DNA of 63,246 nucleotides, the filler included, from Octopus bimaculoides (Eukaryota), in assembly GCF_001194135.2 (NCBI RefSeq). It is 6 parts of 5 records of this genome, joined end to end, with 100 filler letters (N's around TTAATTAATTAA, not from the genome) between each part and the next. Parts side by side here need not be neighbours in the genome. Positions count along the whole stretch, not along the records: positions 1 to 13,055 come from NC_068987.1; positions 13,156 to 27,724 come from NC_069000.1; positions 27,825 to 36,701 come from NC_068986.1; 3 more parts are not named here. One strand, given 5' to 3'. The position numbers and the translations under genes were made by a program. Of this stretch, positions 2,581-41,530 are shown in pieces. Within the stretch, counting starts at the first letter, position 1; each line of letters starts with the position of its first letter. The notes under the pieces are model-generated. The model saw nothing but the letters and a program-made list of their open reading frames with translations, searched no databases and was not told where the DNA came from.

Positions 2581-3358
2581 GAGAGTATAAAAGAGCCAGA
2601 GAGGTCATGATAGTGTGAGCGTAAGACAGAAAGACGAGAGATAGGCAAAAGGTTATATAGCTGACATCTGTTTTCTGTCATTGTTTAGTTATTTCAGTTA
2701 TTTGCCCGACAAATTCTATTTAGATAACTGGCTTTAAAAAAATCTTGTTTTTTTCTTTTGTTTTCTACATGGTGTCTTCTCTTGTTTCTTCACTTGTTGA
2801 ATTTAATTTTATTTTGGTCCTCGGTGAGGTGAAGTGGTCTCTTATCGCTGTTATATCTTATATATTTTTTCTTCCTTTTCCTCCCTTTTTTTTTTGTGTG
2901 TTTACCATGTTCGTCAGAATCCTATCTCCAATAACTTCCGGAAGCGTCCTCATTTGATCCTTAACGATGTCCTTTATCTGTTTTCTTTTTCAAAAATTCT
3001 CTGATTGTCAATCTTTCTGATACCGAGACTGCATAAAATATGTTTTTGTTGTTGCCGTTGTAGTTTGAACCCCGCCCCTACCTACTCCACGTCAACTGTG
3101 GTGCCAAAGGTATTGCACTCCATTTAAAGACATGTAGGCTTACATTATCGAATGCGCCGGTCCCCACCTTTTTTTATACTACGGTATGGCGTATTTCGAG
3201 AGAGAGTTAGCTGCTATTTTTAACACGTGAAATGACCACATAGAAGCGTCCCCGTTGGATCGTGTTATTCTTACTCTTGTTTAACTACAAGTCAACCTCG
3301 ATTCAGTAGACTTATAGTACAATGCGTTAAATTTATTACCAACCCTTGTTTCAATGTT

Positions 3359-3747
3359 GTTGGCCACTCCGTCGCTTACGACGTCGAGGGTTCCAGTTGA
3401 TCCGATCATCGGAACAGCCTGCTCGTGAAATTAACGTGCAAGTGGCTGAGCACTCCACAGACACGTGTCCTCTTAACGTAGTTCTCGGGGGTATTCAGCG
3501 TGACACTGTGTGACAAGGCTGACCCTTTGAATTACAGGCACAACAGAAACAGGAAGTGAGAGTGAGAGTGAGAGAAAGTTGTGGTGAAAGAGTAGAGCAG
3601 GGTTCGCCACCACCCCCTGCCGGAGCCTCGTGGAGCTTTAGGTGTTTTTCGCCCAATAAACACTCACAACGCCCGGTCTGGGAATCGAAACCGCGATCCT
3701 ATGACCGCGAGACCGCTGCCCTAACCACTGGGCCATTGCGCCTCCAC
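3359..3747 (-). mobile_element. tRNA-derived SINE, family A, full length
   Basis: A-box TGGCCCAGTGG and B-box GTTTCGATTCC on the minus strand; 12-bp TSD TGTTTCAATGTT (3347-3358 and 3748-3759); near-identical to other copies. Confidence 0.92.
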
Positions 3748-4194
3748 TGTTTCAATGTTAATCTATTGTAAAACAACGATTTAGCATTGTCGGGTGGAAT
3801 GTTTTGCCGCATTCATAACACCTTTGTGTGTTCTGAGTTCGAATCCTGCCGCGGTCAACTCGCGATTTTATCCTTTCGGAGTTGATAAATAAAGTACTAG
3901 TCTGGCACTAGGATCAGCTCTTCTCTTTCTGTCATCTTACTGGACAAATCAGCTGTGGTCAAACCTAGAGAAGGGTGGCCTACCAGGCTGAAATGCCCAA
4001 GGAACGTTGTATGCCATAACAGCGTCCCTACACATTTGACCATATATACAGGGTCAGTCAGAAGTAGCGCCTAGTTTCTGGGAAGTAATACCTTTCTTTG
4101 TTGTTTTGTAGGATAGGTTGTTACCGATAGTTTTGAAAGTTTCTAAATCTAGATCATATAATCATGTTAATATTTCTTGATATCCTATAGAATA

Positions 4195-5987: not shown

Positions 5988-6379
5988 GTGGAGGCGCAAT
6001 GGCCCAGTGGTTAGGGCAGCGGTCTCGCGGTCATAGAATCGCAGTTTCGATTCTTAGACCAGGCGTTGTGAGTGTTTATTGAGCGAAAAAAACCCACCTA
6101 AAGCTCCACGAAGCTCCGGCAGGGGATGGTGGCGAACCCTGCTGTACTCTTCCACCACAACTTTCTCTCACTCTTACTTCCTGTTTCTGCTGTGCCTGTA
6201 ATTCAAAGGGTCAGCCTTGTCACATTGTGTCACGCTGAATATCCCCGAGAACTACGTTAAGGATACACGTGTCTGTGGAGTGCTCAGCCACTTGCATGTT
6301 CATTTCATGAGCAAGTTGTTCCGTTGATTGGATCAACTGAAACCCTCGATGTCGTAAGCGACGGAGTGCAAGCAACAAC
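5988..6379 (+). mobile_element. SINE family A, full length
   Basis: GTGGAGGCGCAATGGCCCAGTGG head to GTAAGCGACGGAGTGCAAGCAACAAC tail; imperfect TSD GATATT(T)ATTA. Confidence 0.9.
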
Positions 6380-6407: not shown

Positions 6408-6725
6408 GTGGCTAAGTGAAAGCACGTGGCTTGGTTGTTAGTGTATTCGGCTCACGTTCTTAAGGCCGTGAGTTCGATTCTCGATGGCGCATTGTCCTCG
6501 AACATTGCTCCGGTCCACTTAGCTGGACAAAAATGAATGGTACCAGTATTTCAAAGGGCTACCATTGATACTTTCTGTGTCACGCTGAATCTCTCTTTGA
6601 GAACTACGTTAAGGGTACGCATGTCTGTGGAGTGCTCAGCCACTTGCACGTTAATTTCATGAGTAAGCTGTTCAGCTGATCGGATCAACTGGAGCCCTGA
6701 TCGTTATAACCGATGGAGTTCCAGT
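6408..6725 (+). mobile_element. SINE with family-D head and family-A-type 3' tail
   Basis: Head GAAGGCATGTGG...GAGTTCGATTC; from ~6570 it matches the family A tail (TGTGTCACGCTGAAT...GAGAACTACGTTAAGGG...CCGATGGAGT). Confidence 0.7.
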
Positions 6726-11898: not shown

Positions 11899-12765
11899 AT
11901 TGCAGTGTATATGAATTAAAAATATGTAGGGACAGACCTTTAATATACTTCGTAGTATATTATGGTTGCAAAACGAAATACTGTTTAATTGCTAGCAATT
12001 AATATGCACATACAAGTTGCCAGGAATGTGTTTAATATATAAATTGGTCTATCCATTTGTGTTACGCAGCTAAATTTAGTGGGTATTTACGCAATGTGAT
12101 CGTGGATAGTTGATTGTTTGGATGCGGTGCTGATGAAAGAGCAATATGTTTTGAAATGTATATATACACCCATTACATATTTTTTCTATTTTCGATCGCA
12201 TTGCTTACATAAACGTATTCCTTTACGAAACATTGGAACTTGCAGTGCTGGCTCTGAACTCTATATGAAACCTATAGAGATAAACTTAAAAGTGTATATT
12301 TCTAATGTATCATTCTAACCTGAAAAATAACTCTAAAGAATTTAGGTGTACAAAATGCACGGTGACGTCATGTATTTCGCGTTCAACTTCTCTGCTATGA
12401 TACATGACCAGTTATATAATTTTAATTAGCTTTAAACTGCTGTAATACAGAATGCTAAGCGAGGACAATAGCCATAAATGTTTTTCTACATGTAAATAAA
12501 GCGATGGTAAAATAAATTTGAATTTGCGAAAGTAAGACTTACAAAAGCATAAAAACTCTTCGTTTTCCGGAGAATATTGTGAAAAGTGCAGAAAGCGCCC
12601 AGGCATCGCTGTGCTGTTAAAGAATTCACGGTACCTTAAGCAAGTGTTGCTTCTACTATGGCGCCAAGCCAACTGGTGCGTTGTGAGTGCGTTTGCTTGC
12701 CGAAACCTGTGTAAAAGTCTATCTATCTATCTATCTATCGATCTATCTATCTATCTATCTCTTCT

Positions 12766-13055
12766 CACGGACGTGCTGTCACATCGGCTGCGAAGGTAAA
12801 CGTTTATTTGACCTTTTACTGTCCACATTTTGTTGGAATTTTTTAATAATTTTGTTGCGAAGCACCTAGGCTTCATTTGTGTGTATTTTCAAGGGCAGGA
12901 ATTGACCCCCAGGGGCAGTTTCGGCCCTAGCAAAATACAAAAATTTCCTTCTTGACATTTGAAAAATGTCGAGAAACATAATTTTGGAACGCTTGTCTTG
13001 TTCTTTTGACAAGCATTTCCCGAGGCTTCAGATGCCAGAAGAGAAAAAAGAACAG
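12766..13055 (+). mobile_element. 5' UTR and ORF1 start of a second Tx1/L1-type LINE copy, running into a gap
   Basis: Homologous to the reverse complement of 30780-31028 (GACGTG.TGTC.CATCGGCT.CGAAGGTAA; GGAATTG.CCCC.AGGGGCAGTTTC; TTGAAAAATGTCGAGAAA). ATG at 12966 gives MSRNIILER versus MSRNVVIER. Confidence 0.85.
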
Positions 13056-13559
13056 NNNNNNNNNNNNNNNNNNNNNNNNNNNNNNNNNNNNNNNNNNNNT
13101 TAATTAATTAANNNNNNNNNNNNNNNNNNNNNNNNNNNNNNNNNNNNNNNNNNNNAAGTACCAAATTTAAAAATTAAATATTGTCATCGATTTCTTTGTC
13201 TAAACTCTCCACTGTTGTGCCCCAGAGTGGCCGCAGTCCAATGACTGAAATAAGTAAACGATAAAAGATATAGGTGTTGCCCTTCCTCATTTGAGTAACA
13301 AATAAAAACAACTTTATGTCTATTGAGGTTCTTGCAGTGAACGATTTAGTCAAGTAAGATCCGCACACTTACCAGAGTCAGAACAGTTATAGAGTAAGAT
13401 GGCTGCTAAGAATATAACACATTAGATTGTATTACGAACCAAATGAAGGAGCCAACAGGAGGTTCGGTAGAAATAGCAGTGAAATCTCCCTCCAATCACA
13501 TGTTCTACTGTCTTTAAATCAAAGAGCATTGTTTGAATAAAGTAGTCGTAGATATATTG

Positions 13560-13947
13560 GTAGAGGCGCAATGGCCCAGTGGTTAGGGCAGCGGACTCGC
13601 AGTCATAGGATCGCGGTTTCGATTCCCAGACCGGGCGTTGTGAGTGTTTATTGAGCGAAAACATCTAAAGCTCCACGAGGCTCCGGCAGGGGATGGTGGC
13701 GAACCCTGCTGTACTCTTTCACCACAACTTTCTCTCACTCTTTCTTCCTGTTTCTGTTGTGCCTGTAATTCAAAGGGTCAGCCTTGTCACACTGTGTCAC
13801 GCTGAATATCCCCGAGAACTACGTTAAGGGTACACGTGTCTGTGGAGTGCTCAGCCACTTGCACGTTAATTTCACGAGCAGGCTGTTCCGTTGATGGGAT
13901 TGACTGGAACCCTCGACGTCGTAAGCAACGGAGTGCCAGTGCCAACA
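13560..13947 (+). mobile_element. SINE family A, full length
   Basis: 10-bp TSD AGATATATTG (13550-13559 and 13948-13957). Confidence 0.92.
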
Positions 13948-14360
13948 AGATATATTGATACATTCCATGTATGGGAAAGAAAACAAAACAAAAACGGGTT
14001 GGTCAGTACTAGAACGCCTTTAATCATAAGTCTGTTCTATCATAAATAACAACATCAACAACAATAATAATATAGTCACAACAACCATAACAAAATAGTA
14101 TAATTTACCCCATCAGACACAACGGCAACCTACGTGAAGATGGAAACTGCAGACATCAAATGTCGTATATAATTCTCTTTCTAAATGTCAATCAGACTCT
14201 AAAAAGAAAAAAAAAATGGCAGTAAAAAGTTCTTTCTCCCTCGGGGCTCATATCAATTAGATGTATGCAGTTAATTAGAATGCAGTATATTAATTACTAA
14301 ACGCTGTATTTGATATTCTTACTAAGCGATTGTTGGTTTTCGAGAAAAATTGGTGTCTAT

Positions 14361-14760
14361 GGCACAGGCAAGACTGTGGTTATGAAGCTCGTTTTGCAAC
14401 CACGTAGTTTCGAGTTCGATTCCACTATGTGGTAACTACGGCAAGTTTCTTCTACAATAGCTCCGGATCGATTAATGCCTTGTGAGTAAATATGGTAGAC
14501 GGAAACTGTGTGGAAGCCCGTTGTGTGTGTGTGTGCATCTTTGTGTCTGTGTTTGACTTCCACACTACTTGAGAACCGGATTTGGCAATAAGTGGCATAA
14601 ATAGATTTGGCATAGCGGTTCAGTATAAGTGAACGATAAAATAATTACCAAGCTTAAAAAAGAGAATAAGTACTGGTGTTAATTTGTTTCAATCGAATCT
14701 CAGAAAGTGGTGCCCCAGTATGGCCGCAGTTCAGTGACTGAAAGAAGTAAAAGTATAAAA
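14361..14760 (+). mobile_element. SINE family B, degenerate
   Basis: Head with GAGTTCGATTCC, body GGTAGACGGAAACTG, tail CCCCAGTATGGCCGCAG. Confidence 0.7.
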
Positions 14761-15355
14761 GAACGACTAGAGCTAGGCTTATTAAAATAAACTAAACGTT
14801 TAGAAGTGTAAGAATCGGTGGAGTATATGACAAAATACCTTGTGCTATTTGGCTTCGAAAGTTCTTCGAGTTCATGTCTCATCCAGATTAACTAAGCCTT
14901 TCCCCCCCGCTTCTGAGATCGATAAAATAAATACCTGACAAAAATACTGAGATTGACATAATCGACTCTTGAAGATGATACCACAGAATGGCCACGATCA
15001 GTGACTGAAGCCAGTAGAAGAAGAATATGTAATATGTATAAGAATAAAATATAATTTCTATTATATTTTACAGTGGAATAATAAAAATATAATTTCTATA
15101 TAAAATGTGATTTTAAAGACGACGTTTATTTGAAAATAAGAAAACAGATACCTCAAACAATCATTCCAGGTTCTAAATACAAAGTTGATCCTCCCATAAG
15201 CTAATTTTGTCCCTGACGCTCATTTCTTGATTATGCGCTGCTGAAATTCGAGCGCATCTATCATGCCCATGCGTCTTTTGGGGCATCAAATACGGTTACT
15301 ACTCGTAACTACTCTGAAAATTATTATGCTTTTGTGAGCAATATGAATGTTTAAG

Positions 15356-15399
15356 GTGGAGGCGCAATGGCCCAGTGGTTAGGGCAGCGGACTCGCGGT
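15356..15399 (+). mobile_element. SINE family A head, running into a gap
   Basis: GTGGAGGCGCAATGGCCCAGTGGTTAGGGCAGCGGACTCGCGGT. Confidence 0.85.
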
Positions 15400-15499
15400 N
15401 NNNNNNNNNNNNNNNNNNNNNNNNNNNNNNNNNNNNNNNNNNNNNNNNNNNNNNNNNNNNNNNNNNNNNNNNNNNNNNNNNNNNNNNNNNNNNNNNNNN

Positions 15500-15576
15500 C
15501 GAACCGCTAAGTAACGGGGACATAAACACACCAGCATCGCTTGTCAAGCAATGATAGGGGGACATACACAGACACA

Positions 15577-15622
<46 letters not shown>

Positions 15623-15760
15623 CATATATACGACGGGCTTCTTTCAGTTTCCGTCTACCAAATCCACTCACAAGGCTTTGGTCGGCCCACGGCTATAATA
15701 GAAGACACTTGCCCAAGATGCCACGCAGTGGGACTGAACCCAGAACAATGTGGTTGATTC
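15500..15760 (-). mobile_element. SINE family B, partial
   Basis: CGACGGGCTTCTTTCAGTTTCCGTCTACCAAATCCACTCACAAGGC...GACACTTGCCCAAG. Confidence 0.8.
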
Positions 15761-16070
15761 GCACCCCAACAAGTTGTCCTCTGGAAATGACACAGGTCAT
15801 TCATTTTAACTTATTTAAATATAAATGTCTGCCATAAGGGGAAAACTGAGGGCTATATCTTGAAGTACAAGACATGCGATGATCACATGATGCATATGAT
15901 TACATGTATACAAACTAGAACAGTTTTGAATTTCTTGTATTAGCAATAGAAAAAAATGTTAACTAAAAAGTGGTCTGTCCATTATCAAACACAGTTATTT
16001 TCTCAATGAAGAGGTAACATACCGTCGGAGGTATTAACAGGAAATTTGTGAGTTGATGAACATCACGAGT

Positions 16071-16230
16071 GAAGGCGTATGGCCAAGTGTGATTGACGTG
16101 TTGCACTTCCGGTCACAAGATCGTGGTTCCGATTCTCGGAATCAGGCGGGCGGTTGCGTTCTTGAGCAAAGCACTTCAGTTCACGTCGCTCCAGTCGACC
16201 CAGCTTATAAATGAATAATCCTGCCACTTA
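16071..16230 (+). mobile_element. SINE family D
   Basis: GAAGGCGTATGGCC...TTCTTGAGCAAAGCACTTCAGTTCACGTCGCTCCAGTC; shared with copies at 18005, 33335, 36403, 48684. Confidence 0.7.
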
Positions 16231-18004
16231 CTCTATCGTTTTCTTAGGCCGAGCTGCTAAGTTACGGCAACCAAAGCAAACAAACACTGATTGTCAAGTA
16301 GTGGGGTGACAAATACAAACATCAACACACACACACACACACACTCACACACACACACACACACACACATACACACAAACACGCACACACACATTAACAC
16401 CAACACACATAGACACACACATACACACACATTAACACCAACACACACACACGCACGCACGCATTCACACATTAACACCCCCACACGCATTCACACATTA
16501 ACACCCCCACACGCACACACTCACGCTCACACACACAGAGTCAATACAAGCGTGGACATGGCAGAAACGGTAGTGCGACCTTCTGTATGTTTCACAGACT
16601 TTAGGTTCTTCAACCCAGGTCCTGAGTCTAAAATGATCTGAAATCAAGTTTACTTTGTTACCATTTAAGCGACTCATAAGCACCCACTTCACAACCAAAT
16701 GTGTTTCATGTCGTTTAAATAAAAGAAACCGTTAACAACAAAGCGAAAACTATAGCCTGCTGCTGATTTTAAATCTGTGAATGCGCAATCCATTATCTTA
16801 TTCACGATAATGTCGCCCCGTGTAAGGAAGTGAAATGGCTTCGACCGGATGCAGAAAGCTAATGTCTCGGACGCCATTTTCACTGAGCGCTTCAACTTCT
16901 TTATTTCTACTGCCATGACAAGATACTCATCTACGTACACGAGAGTGTCTTCCTCGTCTGACAGTTTTAGTGGCTTTCTCTAACATAGGAACATTTCTGT
17001 CAGAGAAACATTTGTCAAAATCTGGTATTGATTTGCACTTTTAAAATCAAAGCTAACAACACCGGTTTAAACGACATGTGCGAACACACGCACACCACTA
17101 AAAGAAAACTCTTACGCATATGAACATATTCACACATACACATGCACACATACACACATACTCACACAAAATCACACTCACAACACATATTCGCAGAGAG
17201 AAAGAGAAAACCTCTATACTATGTAGAGGCTTGCTAGATATAGCAGCTAAATCTCCCGAAAATCTCATTCGCTACGTTAACAAAGGAGCGTTTTGTCTAC
17301 GTCTTCTCACTTAAATCTACCTACCGGAAGTGAGCAAGGCTATATGGGAACACACACACACATTCACACGTAGGTACACACTGACACACACAAACAATCA
17401 CACAGACAAACACACACACACACGCATACGCACACACACATGCACAAACACACATGCACACTGAAGTATATGCAAGCACACGCACGAACGTACAGTTTCT
17501 TCTTTCGACCATCATAGACCTTTGCACACGAACACCTTTTCAGCTGATATTTTTGTTATTCTCGCAAGCACATGCAATAACATATTCACAGACAGACACG
17601 CATACACACATATAGATACCGTTTAAACTCGTCAATCTTACACGAAACTCGCTCGTTCCAATAGCTTTTACATCTACATTAACACAGAAAGAAACTTACT
17701 TTAAGATTCACACATACGTATTGTTTATGTCTCATTCAAAGATTCAAACATATTTACACATACAGACACATGATCCCACACATACTTTCCTTAGATAGAT
17801 ACACATTCACTATCACTCTCTTTCTCCTCTTCCTCCTCTCTTTCTTCTCCCCCTCTAACACTTCTCACTCTTCCTCTCTGACTTCCTCTCTCGTGCACTT
17901 TTATTTTTCTCTTTTCAGTAACCCGTTGCATGTAACTCTTTCACGCGTCACCAATATCACCATAAAATATACGTCTAACTTCTTCTAACAAGTGGAGCGC
18001 GTGA

Positions 18005-18180
18005 CTTAGTTGGTGAAGGGGTTGCATTTCACGGGTGTAAGATTATGGGTTCGATTCCTAGACCGGACGATGGATTGTGTTCTTGAGCAAAACACTTCAT
18101 TTAACGTTGCTATTGTCCACTCAGCTTGCAAACGTGAGTAATATGGTGAAGTCATGACAGCCCTGGTCAGGCTGTGATGG
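18005..18180 (+). mobile_element. SINE family D
   Basis: GGTTCGATTCC B-box and GTGTTCTTGAGCAAAACACTTCATTT body. Confidence 0.7.
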
Positions 18181-18239
18181 ATGATGAAGCTTCCAACAAA
18201 ACAAACAGAAGGCCTCGGTATGGAAGGGAAAGTCGAGAC

Positions 18240-18541
18240 CAGTGGTTCCCCAAGTGGGCAGCACTGCTTCACCCCCCTTTGGGAGAGGGGGGGCTGTGGA
18301 AAAATCCAGGGAGCGTTGAAGAAAATTGGGGCAATAATGAGGTGGCTAAAATGGGGGACGGATGTAAAAAAACCTCTCAAAATAATGGATTAATTCGATT
18401 AAGTTTTATTTGTGAAATACTATCGTTTTGAATTTGTCGTAGAAAGTGGTCTATATTTGTGGTGGTGAGTGGAGAATGGGGCACTAGTAACGTGGCCTGG
18501 TGCCAAGGGGGCGGCAGTCTGAAAACGTTTGGGAGCCACTG
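18240..18541. mobile_element. hAT (Charlie-like) MITE
   Basis: Ends CAGTGGTTCCCCAA...TTTGGGAGCCACTG; flanking octamers GTCGAGAC and GTCTATCC resemble the NTCTAGAN target. Confidence 0.75.
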
Positions 18542-18549
18542 GTCTATCC

Positions 18550-18736
18550 CAGTGCTCCGCAACCTTTTTTCACTTGCGGTACACTTATTTCTTTTTCAAA
18601 ATTTAGCGGCACACCTGAACTAAAAATATAACTAAAAGTATAAGGGAAAAAAATTATGTTCGGGTTACACTGCGGCACCCCTAGCATCGTCTCGTGGCAC
18701 ACAAGTAAGCCGCGGCATACGAGTTGCGGGACACTA
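18550..18736. mobile_element. Second hAT MITE
   Basis: Ends CAGTGCTCCGCAACC...GAGTTGCGGGACACTA; right flank GTCTAGAT. Confidence 0.7.
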
Positions 18737-18972
18737 GTCTAGATTGACAGGCCATAAGCCTACCCGGTGTTTGGTGTTACACTTTTACTTATTTTATCAC
18801 GCAGAAAGGGGGAGAGGCGGAGAAAGAAAGAGAGAGAGAGAGAGGAAGAGAAAAGGGTGAGTGTGAGAGACAGAGAGATAGCGGCGTACATTCGTTTGCA
18901 CAATTACATTTGTACGAACAGCTTTTAATGTCCGTCTATTTAACTATCTATTTATCAATTTATGTATGTGTA

Positions 18973-19010
<38 letters not shown>

Positions 19011-19400
19011 GTATGTATGTATATCTAAATCTCTTTATCTGTTTCTCTATGTATGTATGCATGTCAGTATGTATGTATGTATGTATGTATGTATCTATCT
19101 ATCTATCTATCTATCTATCTTCCTACCTAACCACCGTCCGTCTGTCTGTCGTCTGTTTATGTCTCAGACTCATTCATATAGTCACACAGAACCAAACACA
19201 CCTTCAAAAGTGTTCTCTCCCATTTCACACAAGCATACACACACATACACAGGTAATCGCACAAGTACACCACATTTTTTTGAAACGAACACTTAACATC
19301 GTATCTAGACACATTTTATATATTTTTTCTGTCCATCTTCATTCCTCTATCGCTTGCTTTCTCACACACAAATATACACAAGCACGCGCACTCATACAGA

Positions 19401-19434
<34 letters not shown>

Positions 19435-20139
19435 GTCATACATTCACACATACAGTCGCAAACGTATTTACAAACGTTATCATATGCAATCACTTATAAA
19501 TACACATTCGTTCGAATACACAAACACACACACACACACATAAAGTCACAACCATCTCTTTGTTTTCTCATGCACACAAACGTATATATATATATATNNN
19601 NNNNNNNNNNNNNNNNNNNNNNNNNNNNNNNNNNNNNNNNNNNNNNNNNNNNNNNNNNNNNNNNNNNNNNNNNNNNNNNNNNNNNNNNNNNNNNNNNNNN
19701 NNNNNNNNNNNNNNNNNNNNNNNNNNNNNNNNNNNNNNNNNNNNNNNNNNNNNNNNNNNNNNNNNNNNNNNNNNNNNNNNNNNNNNNNNNNNNNNNNNNN
19801 NNNNNNNNNNNNNNNNNNNNNNNNNTATATATATTTATATATATATACATATATATTTATATATATATACATATATATATTTATATATATATACATATAT
19901 ATATTTATATATATATATACATATATATATTTATATATATATACATATTATATATAAATATACACATACATATTATATATATATACATACGTACATATAT
20001 TATATATATACACACATATTACATATATATATATTTATATATATATATACATACATACATATATTATGTATATACATACATATTATATATATATGCATAT
20101 TATATATATATATACATACATATTATATATATATGTGTG

Positions 20140-20183
<44 letters not shown>

Positions 20184-22005
20184 CACATATACATACACAC
20201 ATAGATATATACAAAAGCTTACACGCACACAGACACGCACATACACATTCATATGCACACAGAGACAAAACGTTTTCTTCATCATACACGCTTATACATA
20301 TACAGACGCATATTTTGACAGAAATTAACTTTTATTGAATCTGTAGAGAACTAAAATTGATGGCTGTTTCAGTTGTATTACTGCCCTCCCCACCGACACC
20401 TGCTCTGAGTACGAAACTTTTTTCCTGTCACAGCTATTTATGGCTTCCGTATGCACACCCATATGGCTGTTATCAACTATATATAACTACCCGTACATTC
20501 ATACATTTATACTTAGGTACATGTAAATGCATCTACTTAACCATCACACGTCAAAATGTATCTTCGGATCAAATCGGAAACATGAAGCAAAGAGCATCTT
20601 AAGAAACGGAAAGGTACTCCTCCAAACGGAATATGAAGTGTTTCGGAGCAGCTGTTTAGCGCCGCTTAACTGGCGTCACTGATTCGGCGCTGACTTATTT
20701 AACGTTTTAATGTTTCAACTGTTTTTATGTTTCTCTTGTTTTTTCCTTCCCCCACTCTCTCTATTTATGTGTGTGTACATTTTTCTTTTTATGTGTACAA
20801 GGAGACAGAAAGTGTTTATGTCGATCGTGTTCAACTAATACATTGTAACGTCTTCCTCCCGCCCTCACTCTTCCTCTGTCTCTGTCTCTCTCGCACACTT
20901 TTTCCCTCTATGTCTATATTTTTGCGCGTGCGTATTTAGGTGAGTGTGTGTGTGTCTGTAGTTGTGTATTTGCCTCCTACGCCAACAAGTAATCGTCAAT
21001 AGAGGCTATACTTTCATTCAGACAACCAGAAAAAGTACAACTAATTAGAAATATCCAGTTACAATCCATTAACAGAATAGTAGAGATATGTAAAACATTC
21101 CAGAAGTTTAGACTATCGCGCATTCACATAAATACGTATATGTTCTCATACATACATACATACATACATACATACATACATACATACATACATACATGCA
21201 TGCATACATGCATATATACATGCATACATACATACATACAAAAGTCAAACGTACAAATATATACAAGTTATGTTATACGTCCATGTAAACCACCTGCATA
21301 TGCATACATATATACATGCCTATATATTGAGTTAGATACATACATACATACATACATTACATTACATATATAGAGGGAGATAAACACAGTTAAGCTTGAA
21401 ATAAATATATTTGCATGGAGTACAAAAAATGCAGAATAAGGTTAAAAAAATATGTAATTTCATAACTCAACAACTGTTTCAGGAAGCTCGGAGTTACGTA
21501 CTAATAATAATAATTTAATAATAATCATAAATTGCCGATGAAATATGCAAAATGTCATAGACATGTAACCGGTAACCAGTCGCATGAGGTATTTACCAAA
21601 TTCTTCTTGATGAAGGGAGCAAGACTTATTGTAATATCTTCATGTGAGTGATTACTGTTTATACACCCATGACATTTTGCACATTTCATCTGCGATTTAT
21701 GATTATTATGGTTATTACGTAAATCTGAACTTCCTCAAACAGCTGTCGAGTTTTGAAATTACATATTTTCTTATCTTATTCTGTATTTTTTCTGTGCTCA
21801 ATGTAAATATATTTATATCAAGCCTAACTTCGTTTGTTTCAATTTCTAGCTGCATAGCAGCTTTATATTTTATCGTCATTCTTGACGGTACGCACCTTGC
21901 AGTTTAGGTTCAAATTCTTTCGAGCACTACTATATGTTTCTTATACTGAGCATTCCCAGCTCCCACCTATTGTCTGTATACATTACATACATGAATACAT
22001 ACTAC

Positions 22006-23189
22006 ATGGCGTCGAAGTCAGTCAAGTCAGCACAGGAGAATATTCAAACTTTCGTTCAGTCAGTATTATCTCCGAATCTTTTGCTATTAACACAAGTCTG
22101 AGGACGGAATGGATTATTTTTTGCGTATAAACGTAAATAAGAGTCTGTCTAGAGAAAACAGTAGCAATAGTATTAAACGATAGAATTAAGCTGGTATGTA
22201 ACACGACCCTTATTAATACATATGCCATAACAAGAAACGAAACCACGGATAAGCTTTCGCAGGTCGCACAACTATTAAGAGAAATTGCAGTGAAATTTGA
22301 GCTGAATCTAGAACAGCACCAATTATACCAGGACGTTATATAAAATCCCTCAACCGGTTACGTGAAGAGGGATAATAGTTACCGGCATAAAAAGCATCCA
22401 GAATACTTGGATTTCTTACTTAAATTTCTGCACGAAGTCTTTGCGCCATAAAGCTGCAATCGTTAAGAAGAAATATGCAAATATCTCTAGTAAAACCAAT
22501 CATTCATGATGTATAGTAAAAAAACGTGAGCCCCGACTAAAACAGTGACACAGAACAGGATTGCCGTCATTGCATGGTCACACTGTAGACGCTTAAGAAC
22601 AAATAGAAATGAGTAAAGAATAGAAGCAGTACGGACGCATTTCACAGTATGACTTCAGTATTTGCATCGACACACCATTAAATGAAGGAACTATTATAGC
22701 ACGACTTCGCGGAAAACCTACTGACTTGATGTTATCAGTGATCGATCGAATTGCCAAAGAACACTTAGCATAAATTGAAACTCTGTTTTTGAACAATATT
22801 GAGTGCCTTACTGTATTTTGTTACAATTACTATTCGGCAACAGATGGGAGGATCTGAGATCGGACGAGATGATAACATAGAAACAAAATGGATTCTCTTT
22901 AAAAAAAAACAAAAAGCAAAAAAGAAAAGAGAAAAGAACAGTCATCGAAAGACTACGGCAAAACATTGATCAGTTGGATACTTTCATTAGAGGTGAAGTC
23001 AATAATGGATTCATAAACCTCCAGCTAAGACATTTTGACAGACTATCGAAAATCTACGGGAACTGTCTACAGGAAACTCTCAAAGTTAAACTAATAGCTC
23101 TTAAACACGAAGTCGAAATTTCTTTATCAAACCGAATTACAAGAACGCAGAACTATCAACTGCAAGTTTCCGCTACACCCACAACCTGA
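22006..23189 (+). pseudogene. Possible decayed intronless ORF of unrecognised family
   Basis: Long near-open frames: MASKSVKSAQENIQTFVQSVLSPNLLLL (22006); VCLEKTVAIV...FLHEVFAP (22143-22448, one internal stop); KQYGRISQYDFSICIDTP...ATDGRI; KRTVIERLRQNIDQLDTFIRGEV...(~22932-23189). Confidence 0.35.
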
Positions 23190-24164
23190 ATATCACAGCA
23201 TGAAAGGCCATGCTAGCTATGTTGTAAATTGTTATCCCTAAGATGTTCTCGAGTTATTCTGGAGGAGGATGGATTTGAAATTCAAATAAGCAGCACAACT
23301 GCAATGATTTAAATTAGTTCAGAAGGGAATAATGTACAAGAACCAATCCTAAAACATACGGCATCTTTGGTGATACTCTCTTGCTACTTGTTGCAAAACC
23401 GTCGAAATGGATGGGTGTCGCCTAATAGCTGGATATTGGGTATAAAAAGCTCTTGTTAAAATGTCAAAAAAAAAAAAAAAGCTTAAAAGAAAACGAAAAA
23501 AATTGGTGCTTAGCTTGATGTTATAGATAATAGTATTTAATTACCAAGAAACAATGAAACAGTTTAGAAAAAACACAAGCCTACAGTATATTTAAAGATT
23601 ATATATTAAACTTTAAGTGGCTTGAGTATGTTTCTTCAAGGTCACTACGAAACAAATAACATAGCAGTTCATGAGTACTATGTTATTTGACGTTACTACG
23701 AAGTAACTAAAGTTTTAAAACTAACAATATATTATTCATTATGGAAGAGAGGGAGGAAGAAGGAAATAATTTGGATAAGAGAAAGGTGAGAAGGTGAAAG
23801 AATTTTACTAAGAGGAAACCATTTTTTGTTTATACTTCATTAGTTGGGCTGAACGAGAAGTAAGCTTAATTTTATATTTACTTATACATTGTTAAGTACA
23901 TTTCCAAGTTATACTTTTATTCCAGCGAAAATAATTATCGCAGCGTAAACAAGATCAATTGGGTGTGATGGTCCATTCTTGTCAGAACTTCTGTCTAGGC
24001 CAAAGATGCTCTTACATAAAGCTTGATGATCGTGCAGCTTCTGGTCGTCCTAGACAATGCTGGGCCACCGGGAGAGAAACTGTTATTTGAAAAGCGAGTG
24101 CAGATCTGTGTACACTTCATTCACTATAATCAACTTTACGCTGAGTATGAAGCAGTGAGCCTGT

Positions 24165-24355
24165 AGAGTCGTTACCGTGCCGGAAAAATTCTTAGCAGCA
24201 TTTCTTCCGACTTATCTGAGTTCAAATGCCACCGGGGTCGACATTGCCTTTCATCTTTTCAGGGTCGAAAAATAAGTACTAGTTGAACACTGGGGTTGAT
24301 GTAATCGACTTGTCCTCACCACCGAAATTGCGGGCCTTGTGCCAAAATTTGAAAT
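24165..24355 (+). mobile_element. SINE family C
   Basis: GAGTTCAAATGCCACCGGGGTCGACATTGCCTTTCATC...CTGGGGTTGATGTAATCGACT. Confidence 0.7.
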
Positions 24356-24744
24356 CAGTTTTACGTTGAGTAACTTCTTTGGTGAACACTTTATGGATAA
24401 GCAAAGTTCGGCGGCGATGGAGTCAGAGAAACACACAGGCTCCTACATGAATGTAGTTGGTTTGGGGTACGTAGTGTTTCTTTTTCAAATTGTGGCGATG
24501 GCGAAACTCGGTAGTTCTTCGAATGAATGACTAGCATTTTTTAAATGATCCTACTGCTCACCTGTTAGTCAGGAAAAACATCATAAAGGTGATCTGCAAA
24601 ACAAAGCTTACCTAATTCTGGAAATGACCAAGAACTTTGCAGCTGACCGTTGTTCTTTCTTTGCGGGTTCCATAGTTACACCCAAGAAAAGTACCACTTT
24701 CCAAGAAGTGATCGTACTTGGGTACAAGCTGTCTTCCGCCATTT

Positions 24745-24915
24745 ATGTATGTATGTATGTATGGATGGATGGATAGATGGATGGATGGATGGATAGATGG
24801 ATGGATGGATAGATGGATGGATGGATAGATGGATGCTTGCATGCATGTATGTATGTATGTATGTATGTATGTATGTATGACGGCATGTATGTATGTGTGT
24901 ATGTATGTATGTATG
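24745..24915. repeat. Compound (ATGT)n/(ATGG)n microsatellite
   Basis: Direct inspection; forms the 3' flank of the R4-like stack. Confidence 0.95.
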
Positions 24916-26060
24916 TCGTTGTTCAGTTTTATTTCAAGATTTCATGCCAATAGAGAAAGAGTCGGTTTCTAACCTAGATCCAAGGCTCCTTCATTGGAAT
25001 TTCAACATCAACAACAGCGTATTTTTGCTTTTTTTATGTATGTATTTTTCTTCTATTTTTTAATTATTATAAATCTTCCACTGACGAGGGAGCCGGTTTC
25101 CAACAAAGATACAAAGATATCTTTGGGATATAGTTAACAGACAAATTCCATTTGGAACTTGAGAAAAATTTTGCATATTTTTACTGTTCCATTCACATAT
25201 TGCTCTTGTAATGTACGAACCAGCCAGTCGATTTCTCTCTCTGAAAATCCCAGTTTATCCAGATTCTCCTTTAAGCATTTACTAAGAAAACATAGTGCTC
25301 CAATTATTATTGGTATTAATATGAATTCATATTCCGGATATAGAAGCTGGAGGTTTCGAAGCAGTTGTCCATAGGTGTCCTCTTTTTCTTTGATTTTCAA
25401 AGAGATATTTATGTCTCTGGGGCAGCTGACCTCTATGACGATACAAACCTTTGCCCCTCTGTCCCAAACAAAAATATCCGGACTGTTATGCTTACATCTG
25501 ACAAAAGTTTTGATGGGAATATTCCACCAGTATTCCTTTCAGTTTGGGAGTGAGTCGTCATCACATGTCACTTAGTCGCAAACACATATCATATAGCCGC
25601 AATAGAATGCTGTACCATCAACAATAATGTGATTTATGTAAGACATCACCCAGTAATCTATCAAGTCCATTTACACATTTCTCAATACAAACTGCTGTTA
25701 TGACTCCCCACCCACCTCAGTTTTTGCCTCCATAGTAGATGGGTAGATTCGCTAGTATACTTAAATGATAAACTTCTGGAAAGTTCTACAGATTTTTACA
25801 GTTCTAGTGATAAATTGGATCTGTAGTCTTCGAACCAGCTTTCTCCTTTTTGGTTCTGAGAAGCCTAATTTCTGAAGATTGGTATTTGGGCAGTGTGTTA
25901 CATATCCCAGTGCCCCAATAATTACAGGTATATACCTGAACCTGTAATCCGGATAGAGTTACTGCAGATTTCTCAAGTGTTCAGCGTAGATATTCTCTTT
26001 TTCACTGATCTTAAGGTTTATCTTAACATCCACTGGGCAGCTAATTTCTACTACTTACAC
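24915..26060 (-). mobile_element. R4/Dong-like RLE-LINE 3' fragment, subfamily 2, interrupted by a subfamily 1 fragment
   Basis: 26056-25761 translates to VEISCPVDVKINLKISEKENIYAEHLRNLQ*LYPDYRFRYIPVIIGALGYV...TVKICRTFQKFII*. The tail at 25020-24915 matches the tail of the 52-53 kb copy (AAATTCCAATGA...TTTC.CTATTGGC...GAAATAAAA). Confidence 0.8.
25040..25560 (-). mobile_element. R4/Dong-like RLE-LINE 3' fragment, subfamily 1
   Basis: KEYWWNIPIKTFVRCKHNSPDIFVWD...EVSCPRDIN.SLKIKEKEDTYGQLLRNLQLLYP...IIIGAL...GTVKICK: PD..E-type restriction-like endonuclease domain. Confidence 0.88.
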
Positions 26061-26092
26061 ATGTATGTATGTATGTATGTATGTATGTATGT

Positions 26093-26770
26093 ATTCCAGA
26101 AGATATAGAAACCCTCGCTTCAGATCGAGTTGGATGGCGAACAAAAGTGTGGAATGGAATGAAAGCGTTTGAAGAGGCCAGGATGACGCAAGCAGGGCTC
26201 AAGAGATATTTAANNNNNNNNNNNNNNNNNNNNNNNNNNNNNNNNNNNNNNNNNNNNNNNNNNNNNNNNNNNNNNNNNNNNNNNNNNNNNNNNNNNNNNN
26301 NNNNNNNNNNNNNNNNNNNNNNNNNNNNNNNNNNNNNNNNNNNNNNNNNNNNNNNNNNNNNNNNNNNNNNNNNNNNNNNNNNNNNNNNNNNNNNNNNNNN
26401 NNNNNNNNNNNNNNNNNNNNNNNNNNNNNNNNNNNNNNNNNNNNNNNNNNNNNNNNNNNNNNNNNNNNNNNNNNNNNNNNNNNNNNNNNNNNNNNNNNNN
26501 NNNNNNNNNNNNNNNNNNNNNNNNNNNNNNNNNNNNNNNNNNNNNNNNNNNNNNNNNNNNNNNNNNNNNNNNNNNNNNNNNNNNNNNNNNNNNNNNNNNN
26601 NNNNNNNNNNNNNNNNNNNNNNNNNNNNNNNNNNNNNNNNNNNNNNNNNNNNNNNNNNNNNNNNNNNNNNNNNNNTTTAAAAAGCCACATCAGACGCCAT
26701 GAAGGTGCCAAGGTGTAGGTACAGAAGGTGGTCAAACTCTGTGTAAGGAGTAGACAACGAAAAAAAAAAA
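26093..26770 (+). mobile_element. RTE-clade LINE 3' fragment, split by a gap
   Basis: IPEDIETLASDRVGWRTKVWNGMKAFEEARMTQAGLKR before the gap; FKSHIRRHEGAKV* and an A-rich end after it. Confidence 0.75.
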
Positions 26771-27075
26771 GACATGTAAGTATGTATGTGCATGTACGTA
26801 TGCATGTATATATGACTGCAAGTGTATGTACGGTGTTTTCATATGTCTGCATGTGTATATATGTATGTGCTTTTATATATATCTGTCTGAATGTATGTGC
26901 CTGTATGCGTGAGTGAAAGTGTTGGTGCATCTCGTCCTCTGTCTCGAGCTGTTACAATCTAGACTTTCCACTGGGGGCTGAGGCCAAGAGACACGTGACT
27001 ACATAGGCTCCTCCTTGTCTGTATGTACGAATATGCGTTTGTGATTTAGAAGCGGAGCCGTTGCATATTGAATAT

Positions 27076-27146
<71 letters not shown>

Positions 27147-27668
27147 ATGTGCTTGCATGAGTGTGTGTTCGGTATGTATATGTGTGTGCAGGTGTTTGTG
27201 TGTGTCGGTGTATGTATGTGAATGTGTGTGTGCATGAGCGGGGGTGTGTGGATATGTGTGCATGTTTGTCGAGGTGGCTGTTAAATAATTATGCATATGT
27301 GTATTGCGTCCGTATGTGCCTCTGTGTGTCCATGGGTGTATGTGTCTGCGTGTGTATATGTTTGTATATGTGCATAATATCCATGTGTGCCTATGGATGT
27401 GTGTGTGCTTGTTCGTGCATTGGGTGAGGAGTTAAATAAATATGTTTATGATGTGTGTGTGTGTGTGTATTTTTGTGTGAGTGTATTCGTGTGTTTAAGT
27501 GGAGATTAAATGATACAAAATATCTGTTGGTAATTTCGGATTTGAGTAAAAAAAAAAAAAATTCCTCAAGAGCAACATCGCAAAACAATTTTCTGCAATC
27601 TCTCTGCTCCACCTCCTCCTCCTCCTCCTCCTACTACTACTACTACTATATAGTAATATGACGATAAC

Positions 27669-27724
<56 letters not shown>

Positions 27725-27824
27725 NNNNNNNNNNNNNNNNNNNNNNNNNNNNNNNNNNNNNNNNNNNNTTAATTAATTAANNNNNNNNNNNNNNNNNNNN
27801 NNNNNNNNNNNNNNNNNNNNNNNN

Positions 27825-28860
27825 CCTGACAGCACACCCTTCGTGTTTGGCGTTGAAGTGTTGGTCGAGGGCCAACGTCATCGCCAAAACGTCGGATGCG
27901 ATGCCGCTTCTTATTGCCTCTTCTAACTTCTTCATTAGCTCACTCTCTACTCTGTTTCTATCTACGACTAGTGCCTTACTATATCTAATTACTTCCGCTT
28001 TTATTGCTCTCTTGAGAGCAAAGCACCATTTGTTGTTGATGATGGCTCCCGTCAAAGCCCTCTTTACTAACGTGCTAATTCGGTCTCTGAAAACCTGTCT
28101 CGACGGGAAAGACGCGTTCAGTTTCCAGTAACCAGGACCCTGCTTATATGCCTTATCTAAGTCTAGCGTACACGTCACGAGTTTGTGATCCGTGTAGCTG
28201 ACTGTGTGGAATTGTGGACATCCTAAGCTATCCCTATCTACTGTCCTACACAGTATCCTATCTAGATACGATCTCGACGACCCAATGCGGTTGCTCCGTG
28301 TCCACGTTGGCGCATTTGGGTGATCGAATCGGTACCTGTCAGACAGTTGAAAGCGTCTAAGTAGGTCTCTGAAGCCTTTGCATCCCCGTCTAGTTCTGTC
28401 TCTCCCCACGTAGTCTAGATGCGTGTCCAAGGTAGCATTCCAATCTCCCACTAAAAGGACGAGACGTTCCCAGGAATACTTCTAGACGTCGAAAGAAATC
28501 CGGCCGACCTGTTAAAGGCTGTGCATAGACTGCTAGAAGTCGAAAAGCGCACCCATCGCTGCCGTCGACATCCAGGACAACCAGTCTACCCTCCGGGTCT
28601 ACGGATATCGTCTTTACTTCGAGATCCAGACTCTTGCGAAAAAGTACCGCCGTGCCACAACCGCCCATCTTCGGCAGACAGGGAGAAAAATAAATGTTAA
28701 ACTGTCTGCCAGATATGGACTTTAGGGCCCGTGGCTCATGGAGTCTGGTCTCACTTATGGTTATGATTCCCAAATCGTGTGACTTTATGTCATTTAAGAA
28801 GTGCCCTTGTTTCGAAGGGGACCCCAATCCACGCGCATTCACACAACCAATCTTGACCAT
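27825..28860 (-). pseudogene. LINE ORF2 apurinic-like endonuclease domain, frameshift near 28440
   Basis: VKIGCVNARGL, ISETRL, GDWNATL, SYLDRIL, YTDHKLV, GPGYWKLNAS motifs. Confidence 0.93.
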
Positions 28861-28910
28861 GATCCTATTCAGTTGTGTGCTTTAAAACACAAAATGAAAC
28901 GAACAGAGCG

Positions 28911-30829
28911 TTACTTACCGTTCGAAAGTTCAGTTGTTTCCTCCTTTGATTTTTCATCACGGAGACTGTTGTAGAGTTTTTCTGATAGGTATTTATGTCA
29001 TCCTCCTACCGCATTGGGATAGAGGGATTTTAGTGTGTGGTGCAATATTGGTGTAAGGTGGTAAATCTTGATGTGTTCTGGTGGTGTTGTGTATGGGTGC
29101 TTGCTCGTTTTAATGTTGTTTTCTGTAATGTTTATTTTTGTGTTGATGTATTTCATCAACTCTGTGTTTGTAGTGTCAATTGCTGTGAGCATATTTCCTG
29201 TATGTATTTTCGTGGTGATGATGTTGGTGTTGATGTTGTATGTGGTAGGTTTTGAGATGTCTTCGGGAGATGTATACGCTTTGTTCGCGTTTGCATTAGG
29301 TTTGCTTCGTTTTTTGCTCCTTTTCCTCCTTCCTTTTCTGGCTATTTGCCATTCCTCACTGCTTTCGTCTTCCGAAGAAATTTCTGAGGAATCGGAAGTG
29401 GGTAGGGGCATGTTGTATGCTTCTGTGTTTGTTTGTGTAAGTGGTTGTGTTGTTGTTTTCGTTGTTATTGATTGTTGACTCTCTGGTTGTGGTGTATGTG
29501 ATGTGGGGGAAGGGGAATTAGTTTTTGCATTGTCTTTTGGTTTTACTGTTTCTTTAGTTCTTGCTGTTACAGTTGGTGTTTTTTCAGATGCTGTTGTATG
29601 TTCATTTGTTGGTGTTGACGGGTTTGGTTGGTGTGTTTCTTTTGTGGTACTCCCTTTGCTTGTCCTCTGTGCTGATGGTGGTGTGTGTAGTAAGGGTTCT
29701 TTTTCCTTGTATTTTTTCCTTGTGGTTGTTGTTCATGTTCTTGTTTTTGTTGTGTTTTTGCTGTTGGGCAATCAGTTCTTAAGTGCTCTTCGCTGCCACA
29801 CAAGTAGCAGCGAAGCCTCCTACCTTCTACCACCACGTAGAGATTATGGCCGTCTGGCAGCTCAATTTGGTGTGGGATGCTATTAATTTGATTTTGATTA
29901 ATTTGCAACAAGAACTGAATCGTTTTTGCCGACCAGTTCTGTTGCTCCAAAGAAGCAAACTCGAGGATATTGATGTTCTCCTCCATGTTGTAGCAAATGG
30001 CTGACAAAAACCATTGTGACTTTACCTCAGGAGAGACATTCTTGATCGAAACTTTGGTCACACGTTGACCAAGGTAGGTCGGAATTAAAATCAGTTTTTC
30101 CGACTGTAGGGTGAGTGTCGACAGTTCTTTTGCTTTTTCTTCGCTGTCGAAGCAAACCTGTATTGTGGCATATTTGTTCCACCAGTTTACATAGTTCTTA
30201 AAAGCCCATATCGGGCGCAAAGGTTTTTCTATAAATTCTTGTGGTGCTTGTTCTGGTCTGCGTGTTTTTGCGTTAATAATTTTGTACACTATTGTTCTCT
30301 ATTGTGTGGTCTCTATGATGTTTTGAGGAATGTTCAGGTGTAGATTTGAGCCCTCTTGAGTTAAGAGGGCTTTTGTTTGTTTTATTTGTTCTGGTGTGAA
30401 ATGTAGAACGGTCTTTTTTTGTTTCAAGGCTTCTGCGAAATTGGATTTGTTTTTGGTGGTAGTGTTGGCGGCAGAGGTGTCCGTTTTTGCTGTAGAAGGT
30501 GAAGTTTTAGTGGTAGTGATGGTCTTTTCTTTCGCACAGGCTGACGGCTTGGCGACGGTATCGCTGTTGTTGCTGGTTTTGGTGGTGGTGGTGGTGACAG
30601 GGCTGTTAACGGTCGTGGTTGCAGTATCCATGACGTTGACAGCGTTCACTTTTAAGTCTGTAATATTTGTCTTTGATTCATTTTGTTCCATATGTTTCAT
30701 AGCTGTAGTAGTTTTCGTGTGTGTGCGCGTGCAGGAATCATTCTTGTTTTCTCCTAGCGTTTCAAGGCTAAGAAAATGCTGGTCCATGAAAGAATTTGAC
30801 CAGCGTTCTATAACAACATTTCTCGACAT
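28911..30829 (-). pseudogene. LINE ORF1 (gag-like, RRM-like region plus CCHC knuckle) with two premature stops and one frameshift
   Basis: CYLCGSEEHLRTDC zinc knuckle. 30829-30299 and 30289-29567 are the same frame. The frame of 29411-28998 continues past TGA as HKYLSEKLYNSLRDEKSKEETTELSNGK* (stop at 28911-28913). Confidence 0.85.
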
Positions 30830-31028
30830 TTTTCAAAGTCGAGAAGAAAATATACTAATTTAATTAGGGTTGAAACTGCCCCTAGGGGCCAATTCCTCCC
30901 TTGGAAACACACTCAAACGAAAGTTGGGTGCTTCACACACCTTATGTGCAAAAATGTAAACACAATATGGGCGATAAATGGTAAAAAAAAAAACGATTAC
31001 CTTCGGAGCCGATGCGACAACACGTCAG

Positions 31029-31083
<55 letters not shown>
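31029..31083. repeat. (TAGA)n microsatellite abutting the LINE 5' end
   Basis: Direct inspection. Confidence 0.97.
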
Positions 31084-31084
31084 G

Positions 31085-31411
31085 CATCTTGGGCACGAGT
31101 CTTCTACTATAGCCCCAGGGTGAGCAGAGCCTTATAAGTGGATTTGTTAGACGGAAACTGTGTAGAAGTCTTTCGAGTATACGTGTGTATGTTTCTGCAA
31201 GTGTCTTTGAGTTTGTCCCCTTCCACAATCGCTTGACAACCGAGGTACGTTAGTTTACATCCCCTTAGCTTAATAGTTCTGCAAAAGAGACCGTTATGAT
31301 AACCACAGCACTTTAAAAAAATAAGTACTGGAGTTGATTTGCTCGGCTAAAACCATTCAAAGCGGAGCTCCAGCATGGCCACACTCCAATGACTGAAACA
31401 AGTAAAAGAAA
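31085..31411 (+). mobile_element. SINE family B, 5'-interrupted
   Basis: CTTGGGCACGAGTCTTCTACTATAGCC...GACGGAAACTG...GCTCCAGCATGGCC. Confidence 0.75.
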
Positions 31412-31595
31412 GATACGCAAGGAAAATATCTAAAAGAATAATACACGAAATGGGAACAATAATGCACATTATCAGATGTCTTTGTCTTTTTCATACAAAG
31501 TAACTCACAGTTTGCCAACTTTTCATGTTTACATAGGAATGATGCAAAGTCTAAAAGTATATTTTTTTATGCCATGACAGTTATACTAGGAATCT

Positions 31596-31979
31596 TGTTG
31601 GCACTCCGTCACTTACGACGTAGAGGATTCCAGTTGATCCGATCAACGGAACAGCCTGCTCGTGAAATTAACGTGCAAGTGGCTGAGCACTCCACAGTCA
31701 CGTGTACCCTTAACGTAGTTCTCGGGGATATTCAGCGTGACACAGTGTGACAAGGCTGACCCTTTGAATTACAGGCACAACAGAAACAGGAAATAAGAGT
31801 GAGAGAAAGTTGTGGTGAAAGAGTACAGCAGGGTTCGCCACCATCTCCTGCCGGAGCCTCGTGGAGCTTTTAGGTGTTTTCGCTCAATAAACACTCACAA
31901 CGCCCGGTCTGGGAATCGAAACCGCGATCCTATGACCGCGAGTCCGCTGCCCTAACCACTGGGCCATTGCGCCTCCACT
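31596..31979 (-). mobile_element. SINE family A, full length
   Basis: 10-bp TSD CTAGGAATCT (31586-31595 and 31980-31989). Confidence 0.93.
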
Positions 31980-40220: not shown

Positions 40221-40371
40221 GAGGAAGGACTGAAACGAAAGAGGTTCTTTGTTTGAAGCTGGCAATGATTTTTACATTGATAAACTAATTGGCCGTCAGC
40301 ATTAGTAACATTGTGTTAACATTTTTGATATTAACCCACCTGTGACCGCCCATGGTTCTTTTGCTTTAAAG

Positions 40372-40754
40372 CTGTTGGCACTCCGTCGCTTACGACGTCG
40401 AGGGTTCCAGCTGATCCAATCAACGGAACAGCCTGCTCGTAAAATTAACGTGCAAGTAGCTGAGCACTCCACAGACACGTGTACCCTTAACGTTGTTCTC
40501 GGGGATATTCAACGTGACACAGTGTGACAAAGCTGGCGCTTTGAAATACAAGTACAACAGAAACAGGAAGTGAGAGTGAGAGAAAATTGTGGTGAAAGTG
40601 TACAGCAGGGTTCGCCACCATCCCCTGTCGGAGCCTCGTGGAGCTTTAGGTGTTTTCGCTCAATAAACACTCACAACGCCCGATCTGAGAATCGAAACCG
40701 CGATCCTATAACCGCGAGTCCGCTGCCCTAACCACTGGGCCATTGCGCCTCCAC
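40372..40754 (-). mobile_element. SINE family A, full length
   Basis: 9-bp TSD GCTTTAAAG (40363-40371 and 40755-40763). Confidence 0.92.
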
Positions 40755-41530
40755 GCTTTAAAGTAACCAAAATTAAAACTTTCCGTTAAAATATCCGGAA
40801 CCTTTGATTCCGCAAGCCTTACAAGATTACCGATTTTTTTTTCCGAACTAGGGGTAATTACCTGTGGTCAGCACACTCTAAATTAAGCAAATATTGAATT
40901 TATTCAATTACATAAAATACAATTACTTATACATTAGCCTAAATTGGTGCAGATCATAAGGGGTTTGGGATATCAGTACTCGGGAAGTTAGTGTTGTACC
41001 TGTAATTCATGTTCCCAATAACAGTTTAATAATCTCAAAATTATTTTTCTAAATTCTTCAGGATTTTCAAAATAGTTTTCAAAATTAAAGAAAATTATAG
41101 AAAAGTTTATAAATGCTTTAATTTTTCAATTTGTACAAAACATAGTTTTTTTTTTTAGACATCCAGCCTTCTATCACACCTAAACCTGGTTCATCATCAT
41201 GTGATCCCTTCACTTTTCATGTTTATATTATTACTTAAACCATTTCGGTCATCTGAACGCACCAGCTACAGTCCACCTTCGTTCAAAAGTATATTTTGTA
41301 ACTCTCTTACTGCCGCTTACTCTTCTTCTCTCACTCCCACTCTTATATTCTCTCTATCTTTCTTTCTTGCTTTCTTTCTCTCTCTCTCTCTCCCTCTCTC
41401 TCCCTCTCTCTCCCTCTTTCAGTCGCTCATTCTTGCATTAAAAATTGCATTGTTGAACTGCCATTTTATGTAGTTGTATAATTTTCATCATTGCACAGTT
41501 TCGAGGTTACTGTTACTGAATTATGTGTGC

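Follow-up and report, generated by a model that had tools for sequence, protein, structure and literature searches.

Does a LINE whose 5' end sits directly against a (TCTA)n microsatellite insert into such tracts, or does it bring the tract with it? Two diverged copies of one element raised this question in the window, by which we mean the whole 63,246-nt stretch of Octopus bimaculoides DNA analyzed here, a pack of six genomic stretches joined by filler. From two 5' junctions, the sequence-only reading had proposed a (TCTA)n/(GATA)n specialist. Both junctions were as it described them: in copy 1 there are 10.8 TCTA units with one G among them and then CTTCTCACGGACGTGCTGTC, and in copy 2, on the minus strand, 13.8 units and then CTGACGTGTTGTC. 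The 5' regions of the two copies are indeed homologous (76% over 342 nt, BLAST). They had been taken to lie 18 kb apart on opposite strands, but copy 1 is on C7 at 63.51 Mb and copy 2 on C6 at 25.83 Mb, and because the window is a pack, distance and orientation between them are meaningless; an adjacent or inverted pair was ruled out by the different chromosomes. Both 3' junctions had also been placed in gaps. An assembly gap does close each of the two stretches (6,152 N for copy 1 and 2,070 N for copy 2), but their 3' sides can be read past it. On the far side of copy 1 lies an element 3' end that runs into a degenerate CCTA/TCTA tract, and a second copy could hide in the gap; copy 2 breaks off within its own 3' UTR, and the tract is absent at its 3' side. 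Three further TCTA runs in the window have no neighboring element.

Features of copies 1 and 2, in positions of the window
Feature	Position	Strand	Basis or remark
(TCTA)n tract, 5' half of likely target site, copy 1	12718..12760	+	sequence
5' UTR of copy 1, young subfamily	12761..12965	+	95-100% identity to 39 others among matches listed
ORF1 start of copy 1, cut by pack joint	12966..13055	+	6,152-N gap follows in C7
Pack joint, filler, non-genomic	13056..13155	.	parts come from different chromosomes
(TCTA)n tract, 5' half of likely target site, copy 2	31029..31083	-	sequence
5' UTR of copy 2, older subfamily	30830..31028	-	80-90% identity to other copies, 94% to a single short piece
ORF1 of copy 2	28999..30829	-	stop at 30299-30301, frameshift near 29600
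CCHC knuckle in ORF1 of copy 2	~29765-29812	-	zf-CCHC E 4e-4, 20.7 bits, cut-off 20.8
ORF2 5' part of copy 2 (APE endonuclease + linker), cut by pack joint	27825..28860	-	frameshift near 28470
Fragment of common short interspersed repeat	31085..31190	.	directly adjoins copy 2 tract

The LINE is present in roughly a thousand or more copies in the genome, most of them within TCTA/GATA microsatellites, and full-length copies measure ~5.3-6.6 kb, gaps included. Copy 1 belongs to a young subfamily, with 95-100% identity among the matches listed. In copy 2, ORF1 is broken and contains one CCHC knuckle; ORF2 is of APE type and frameshifted, and its Exo_endo_phos match came in two pieces below the cut-off. 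RT motifs were present in other copies, and homologues bear PF03372, PF00078 and PF13966. For the ORF2 of an open-frame copy, human L1 ORF2p was the top match among solved structures (PDB; E 3e-17), and the closest named RT among the matches was that of the octopod Argonauta hians (67%). With a predicted N-terminal APE and an RT in ORF2, the element classes as an L1-group (APE-type) non-LTR retrotransposon, and it shows two further traits of that group: truncation of copies at the 5' end and target-site duplications. A profile search of copy 2 ORF1 returned the knuckle just short of the cut-off and no Transposase_22 or RRM match. ORF1 variants with CCHC are called consistent with Tx1 in the available part of PMC5203782, and named Tx1 references (Tx1L, Keno, Kibi, Koshi) were absent among the protein-search matches and cluster members.

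A poly(A) tail of the mammalian L1 type is absent. The 3' end consists of AATAAAGAAA plus two subfamily-specific bases, then target, and AATAAA lies only 6-7 nt from the element end. A stem-loop forms at the 3' end of the young TCTA type, but it folds only weakly in the TTA ends of a sister lineage described below. Rfam gave no match at the gathering score, nearly all sub-threshold matches fell in flanking simple repeats, and no ribozyme was found at the 5' end. Several different 5' UTRs occur across the family. Unlike 5' UTRs were seen on closely related bodies in L198, L201, L209, L210, L212, L216, L219 and L271, each beginning at, or a few bases past, a TCTA tract; we read them as the product of repeated 5' UTR replacement.

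We examined the 5' flanks with a query that held just two tract bases. A TCTA-type tract adjoined 29 of 30 full-length 5' ends (30 of 41 matches fetched, copy 2 itself among them), 28 of them scored by rule and one (L014) by eye, with L013 negative. The background, drawn from loci of the TTA lineage and the remainder of the window, had a tract ending just upstream of 83 of 36,110 positions (0.23%). Copy 1-type 5' ends gave 30/30 with tract, but that query contained tract and the result was discounted as unbiased evidence. Head-to-tail arrays with intervening tract were common; many 5'/3' pairs span assembly gaps, where tandem copies could be concealed.

At the opposite end, an element-internal 24-mer located 972 exact 3' ends in the genome, and a reversed-pattern control located 0. 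TATCT follows 832 of the 972 (86%), compared with 0.17% background per position; the sequence is TATCTA in 753 and TATCT plus a non-A base in 79. The proposed specialist would fall if the 3' flanks were not (TCTA)n, and these counts show TATCT/(TCTA)n flanks at the great majority of ends. Another 42 ends have a non-A base at position 2, and of 30 viewed, most still run into TCTA-like tracts. Among the first 30 of the 972, 29 flanks start with TAT, 25 with TATCT and 24 with TATCTATC, and a tract is present at 25. ATC comes after TATCT at 24/25 insertions versus 63/448 background sites (14%), so more than the pentamer appears to be favored. A family is treated as target-specific in the accessible text of PMC4494074 when one sequence type makes up >20% of its flanks, a share that TATCT exceeds here. 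TC or TTTC runs follow a minority of 3' ends, and the family does not qualify as a (TC)n, (TTC)n, (TTCC)n or (TTTC)n targeter.

Three flank-free searches provided a truncation set of 90 loci, with the 3' end locatable in 82, of which 46 were lost to a gap and 2 to the edge of the locus. Of the 34 scorable truncation junctions, 22 adjoin the tract and 12 lack it, compared with the 0.23% background. Copies off the tract have target-site duplications in a summary range of 4-16 nt, starting at TAT(CT), with no tract added: 14 nt in L288 (starting TATCT), 9 nt in L308 and about 4 nt in L304, while the duplication in L042 is TATTA. We picked 14 further stretches for their non-repeat 3' flanks and found duplications in six (L373, 6-7 nt; L375, up to 12; L378, 14-16; L379, 8-10; L381, 12-18; L384, 8); gaps prevented a reading in four others, and the remaining four had none >5 nt. 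Duplication length was inconsistent, being at most 5-7 nt in L106, L278, L292, L301 and L383, with at least 18 nt suggested in L123; those in L144 and L261 were ambiguous because the targets are periodic. Since the off-tract insertions have duplications without added tract, the tract behaves as target and not as part of the 5' UTR.

If the tract were made by the element and brought to random sites as a fixed 5' leader, a 3' tail or both, one could account for ten truncated copies with tract at the 3' side only, for the (TCTA)10 that separates the apparent duplication from the 5' end in L123, and for the copy 2 tract, which begins directly against another repeat. No convincing duplication was found in those ten, and only about five have an evident cause or a neighboring repeat; one adjoins an inverted repeat, one seems joined to another repeat, two are near repeats and the rest are unexplained. 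However, a 5' leader is impossible at the 22 truncation points with tract, and L288, L304, L332, L373, L375 and L379 occupy non-tract sites with tract on neither side. Full-length L384 has its duplication and no additional leader, and the tandem copies in L382 are spaced 9 nt apart. A tract fixed in the 5' UTR, the outcome that the sequence-only reading had named as fatal to its proposal, is thus ruled out by the truncation junctions and the off-tract copies, where the tract is absent when the target has none; the element-made tract in general is largely refuted and keeps a very slim chance. Fainter still, to the point of being scarcely credible, is insertion at random, followed by retention or tract growth, or an assembly artefact. 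In favor of such an account, the genome is microsatellite-rich and gappy, and young element bodies are mostly N. Yet the register is fixed at the 832 TATCT ends, the sister lineage has a different repeat at 30/30, young copies 98-100% identical are already in tract, and contigs from independent runs span both junctions of L332, the one locus where we looked for an empty allele, finding no skipping joint in 4 DNA runs. The flanks at both ends, together with the truncation points, support the specialist genome-wide, and on this sequence evidence we consider it very likely that the family targets pre-existing tracts.

A sister lineage, at 57-65% APE identity, is flanked by (TTA)n. TTA units follow 30/30 sister 3' ends found with a flank-free 3' UTR query, one of them short. 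A quick IQ-TREE analysis of the APE region retained all 62 rows, with TCTA as the default label for some whose flanks were weak or off-target. In this tree, 34 rows that include all copies seen with TCTA junctions formed one clade (SH-aLRT 97), and six rows, including the three TTA copies, formed its sister (SH-aLRT 93). The TTA lineage implies what would be a switch of target around a common TAT core. A young TTA lineage (L223, L226, L228, L231-L260; 1,073 candidates) ends CCAATAAAACGAATTAA and is inserted in (TTA)n, which at several loci is the TTA end of a different interspersed repeat. A related 3'-end motif in L275 (minus strand, ~3389 on the reversed locus) is followed by (ATC)n and then (TTA)n, and is possibly a third target lineage. 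L229, L230 and L220 comprise remoter relatives (55% APE) and a further 3'-end variant, and no microsatellite was seen in their flanks.

We propose that copies are inserted at TAT(CT) in (TCTA)n by target-primed reverse transcription into existing tracts, a likely route in our estimation, with the endonuclease probably the main selector. The first nick would cut the (GATA)n strand immediately 3' of ATA; priming would take place at the tailless RNA end, aided by 1-3 nt of microhomology with the target; the second nick would fall at a variable position; and successive insertions into one tract would build head-to-tail arrays. Some results weigh against this account: 12 of the 34 truncation junctions have no tract, copy 2 has none at its 3' side, the duplications vary in length, the hairpin loop of the endonuclease does not differ between a TTA copy and TCTA copies, and no empty allele appeared at the one locus looked at. 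In its favor, every clear duplication has TAT(CT) as part of the target itself, and both duplication copies in L378 and L379 read TATAT, which argues that the RNA does not impose the C. The Tx1L endonuclease is sequence-specific on its own, according to the available part of PMC1950540.

The RNA could instead select the site. With AATAAA near the end, cleavage in the downstream tract would yield a UAUC-ended RNA able to pair with the nicked (GATA)n strand, and a loosely TA-cutting enzyme would then suffice for tract-specific insertion without poly(A). The lack of poly(A) at genomic 3' ends fits this account, as do TATCT at 27/27 young-copy junctions followed by decay, and the stretch that lines up with the L1 betaB6-betaB5 hairpin, which is identical in L223 (TTA) and L196 (TCTA). 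At five loci (L110, L273, L287, L309 and L315) the two copies of the duplication disagree at position 1 or 2, where TA is present in the 3' copy and absent from the 5' copy, a pattern suggestive of RNA-templated bases. RNA reads (217 and 183) continue into TATC, and insertion of R2Ol is improved by target sequence in read-through RNA, as reported in the accessible portion of PMC6795142. Nevertheless, off-tract 5' duplication copies are natively TAT(CT) with no extra units, the TATAT junctions of L378 and L379 stand uncorrected to TATCT, and 24 positions outside the hairpin, including some beside YAP and after GDWN, differ between the TTA and TCTA clades; the RNA reads look unstranded, have no discrete end among those listed and could come from passive read-through. 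We would rank selection led by the enzyme, with 1-3 nt of microhomology, ahead, and selection by the RNA seems to us unlikely. We are equally doubtful of a wider idea, in which tailless LINEs switch microsatellite target (TTA versus TCTA) with the hairpin unchanged, guided by read-through RNA in a self-perpetuating, RNA-programmed loop.

The presence in a single genome of two closely related lineages that differ in target makes the choice between enzyme and RNA 3' end testable by swaps; what sets the target of microsatellite-specific APE elements is described as 'not well understood' in the part of PMC3812793 available to us. The share of GATA microsatellite loci flanked by LINE sequence matters for marker design and repeat annotation. 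An abundant SINE-like repeat (L031, L052, L095, L116, L143, L159, L200, L211) has the last ~45 nt of the LINE at its 3' end, followed by TA.. instead of TCTA; this repeat is a possible partner SINE of the TCTA LINE, and RNA-dependent targeting would be favored if the LINE's ORF2 mobilizes it. A repeat of ~400 nt has a tRNA-like-looking end and is probably a SINE; it occurs in the window as five copies with 90-96% identity (3346-3755, 5988-6377, 13560-13951, 31591-31979 and 40361-40762) and as fragments at 6540, 15356 and 32446. The window also contains a ~450-nt self-inverted element at 21382-21835 (75% identity, MITE- or foldback-like) and another inverted pair at 42285-43124. At L092, ~1190-1231, a short perfect inverted repeat, likely a later MITE insertion, occupies the point where a LINE copy breaks off on its 5' side.

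With this family, TCTA/GATA joins the list of microsatellite-specific LINE targets. We found no TCTA/GATA-targeting LINE in the openly accessible literature searched; Repbase or subscription papers could list one. The available parts of PMC4640811, PMC3747384, PMC4758252, PMC5203782 and PMC5786205 contained no TCTA target, and an annotation of Octopus vulgaris with 80 L1-Tx1 families never uses the word 'target' in the text available (PMC13282606). Tetranucleotide targeting itself is already published (PMC4494074, as far as available); it is the TCTA/GATA unit that was not found in the searched literature. Xenopus Tx1L is likewise an APE-type element with a sequence-specific endonuclease (PMC1950540, in part), but it targets transposon sequence, and the RDGH tip of its hairpin is absent here.

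Waldo, Mino and Dong belong to other clades (R1 and R4), whereas the ORF2 described here matches L1 ORF2p best among solved structures. They have in common with our family the targeting of microsatellites, (ACAY)n, (AC)n and (TAA)n respectively, including a 4-nt unit in Waldo and TAA in Dong (PMC3812793, available part). Closer in kind are Kibi at (TC)n and Koshi at (TTC)n, of the teleost Tx1 clade, in which microsatellite-specific insertion of Tx1 type is also found and relatives differ in repeat unit (available parts of PMC4494074 and PMC3812793); the unit and phylum are different here. Crocodilian Tx1 families (Tx1-1_Crp and others) target (TTCC)n/(TTTC)n and are, like ours, APE-type L1-group LINEs favoring a tetranucleotide microsatellite (PMC4494074, same portion). 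Compared by target and not by phylogeny, the octopus family differs in having a TCTA unit that is not purely pyrimidine, an invertebrate host and a TTA sister lineage. By analogy, the family appears to work like the microsatellite-targeting Tx1 elements, a likeness in mode of insertion rather than formal clade membership.
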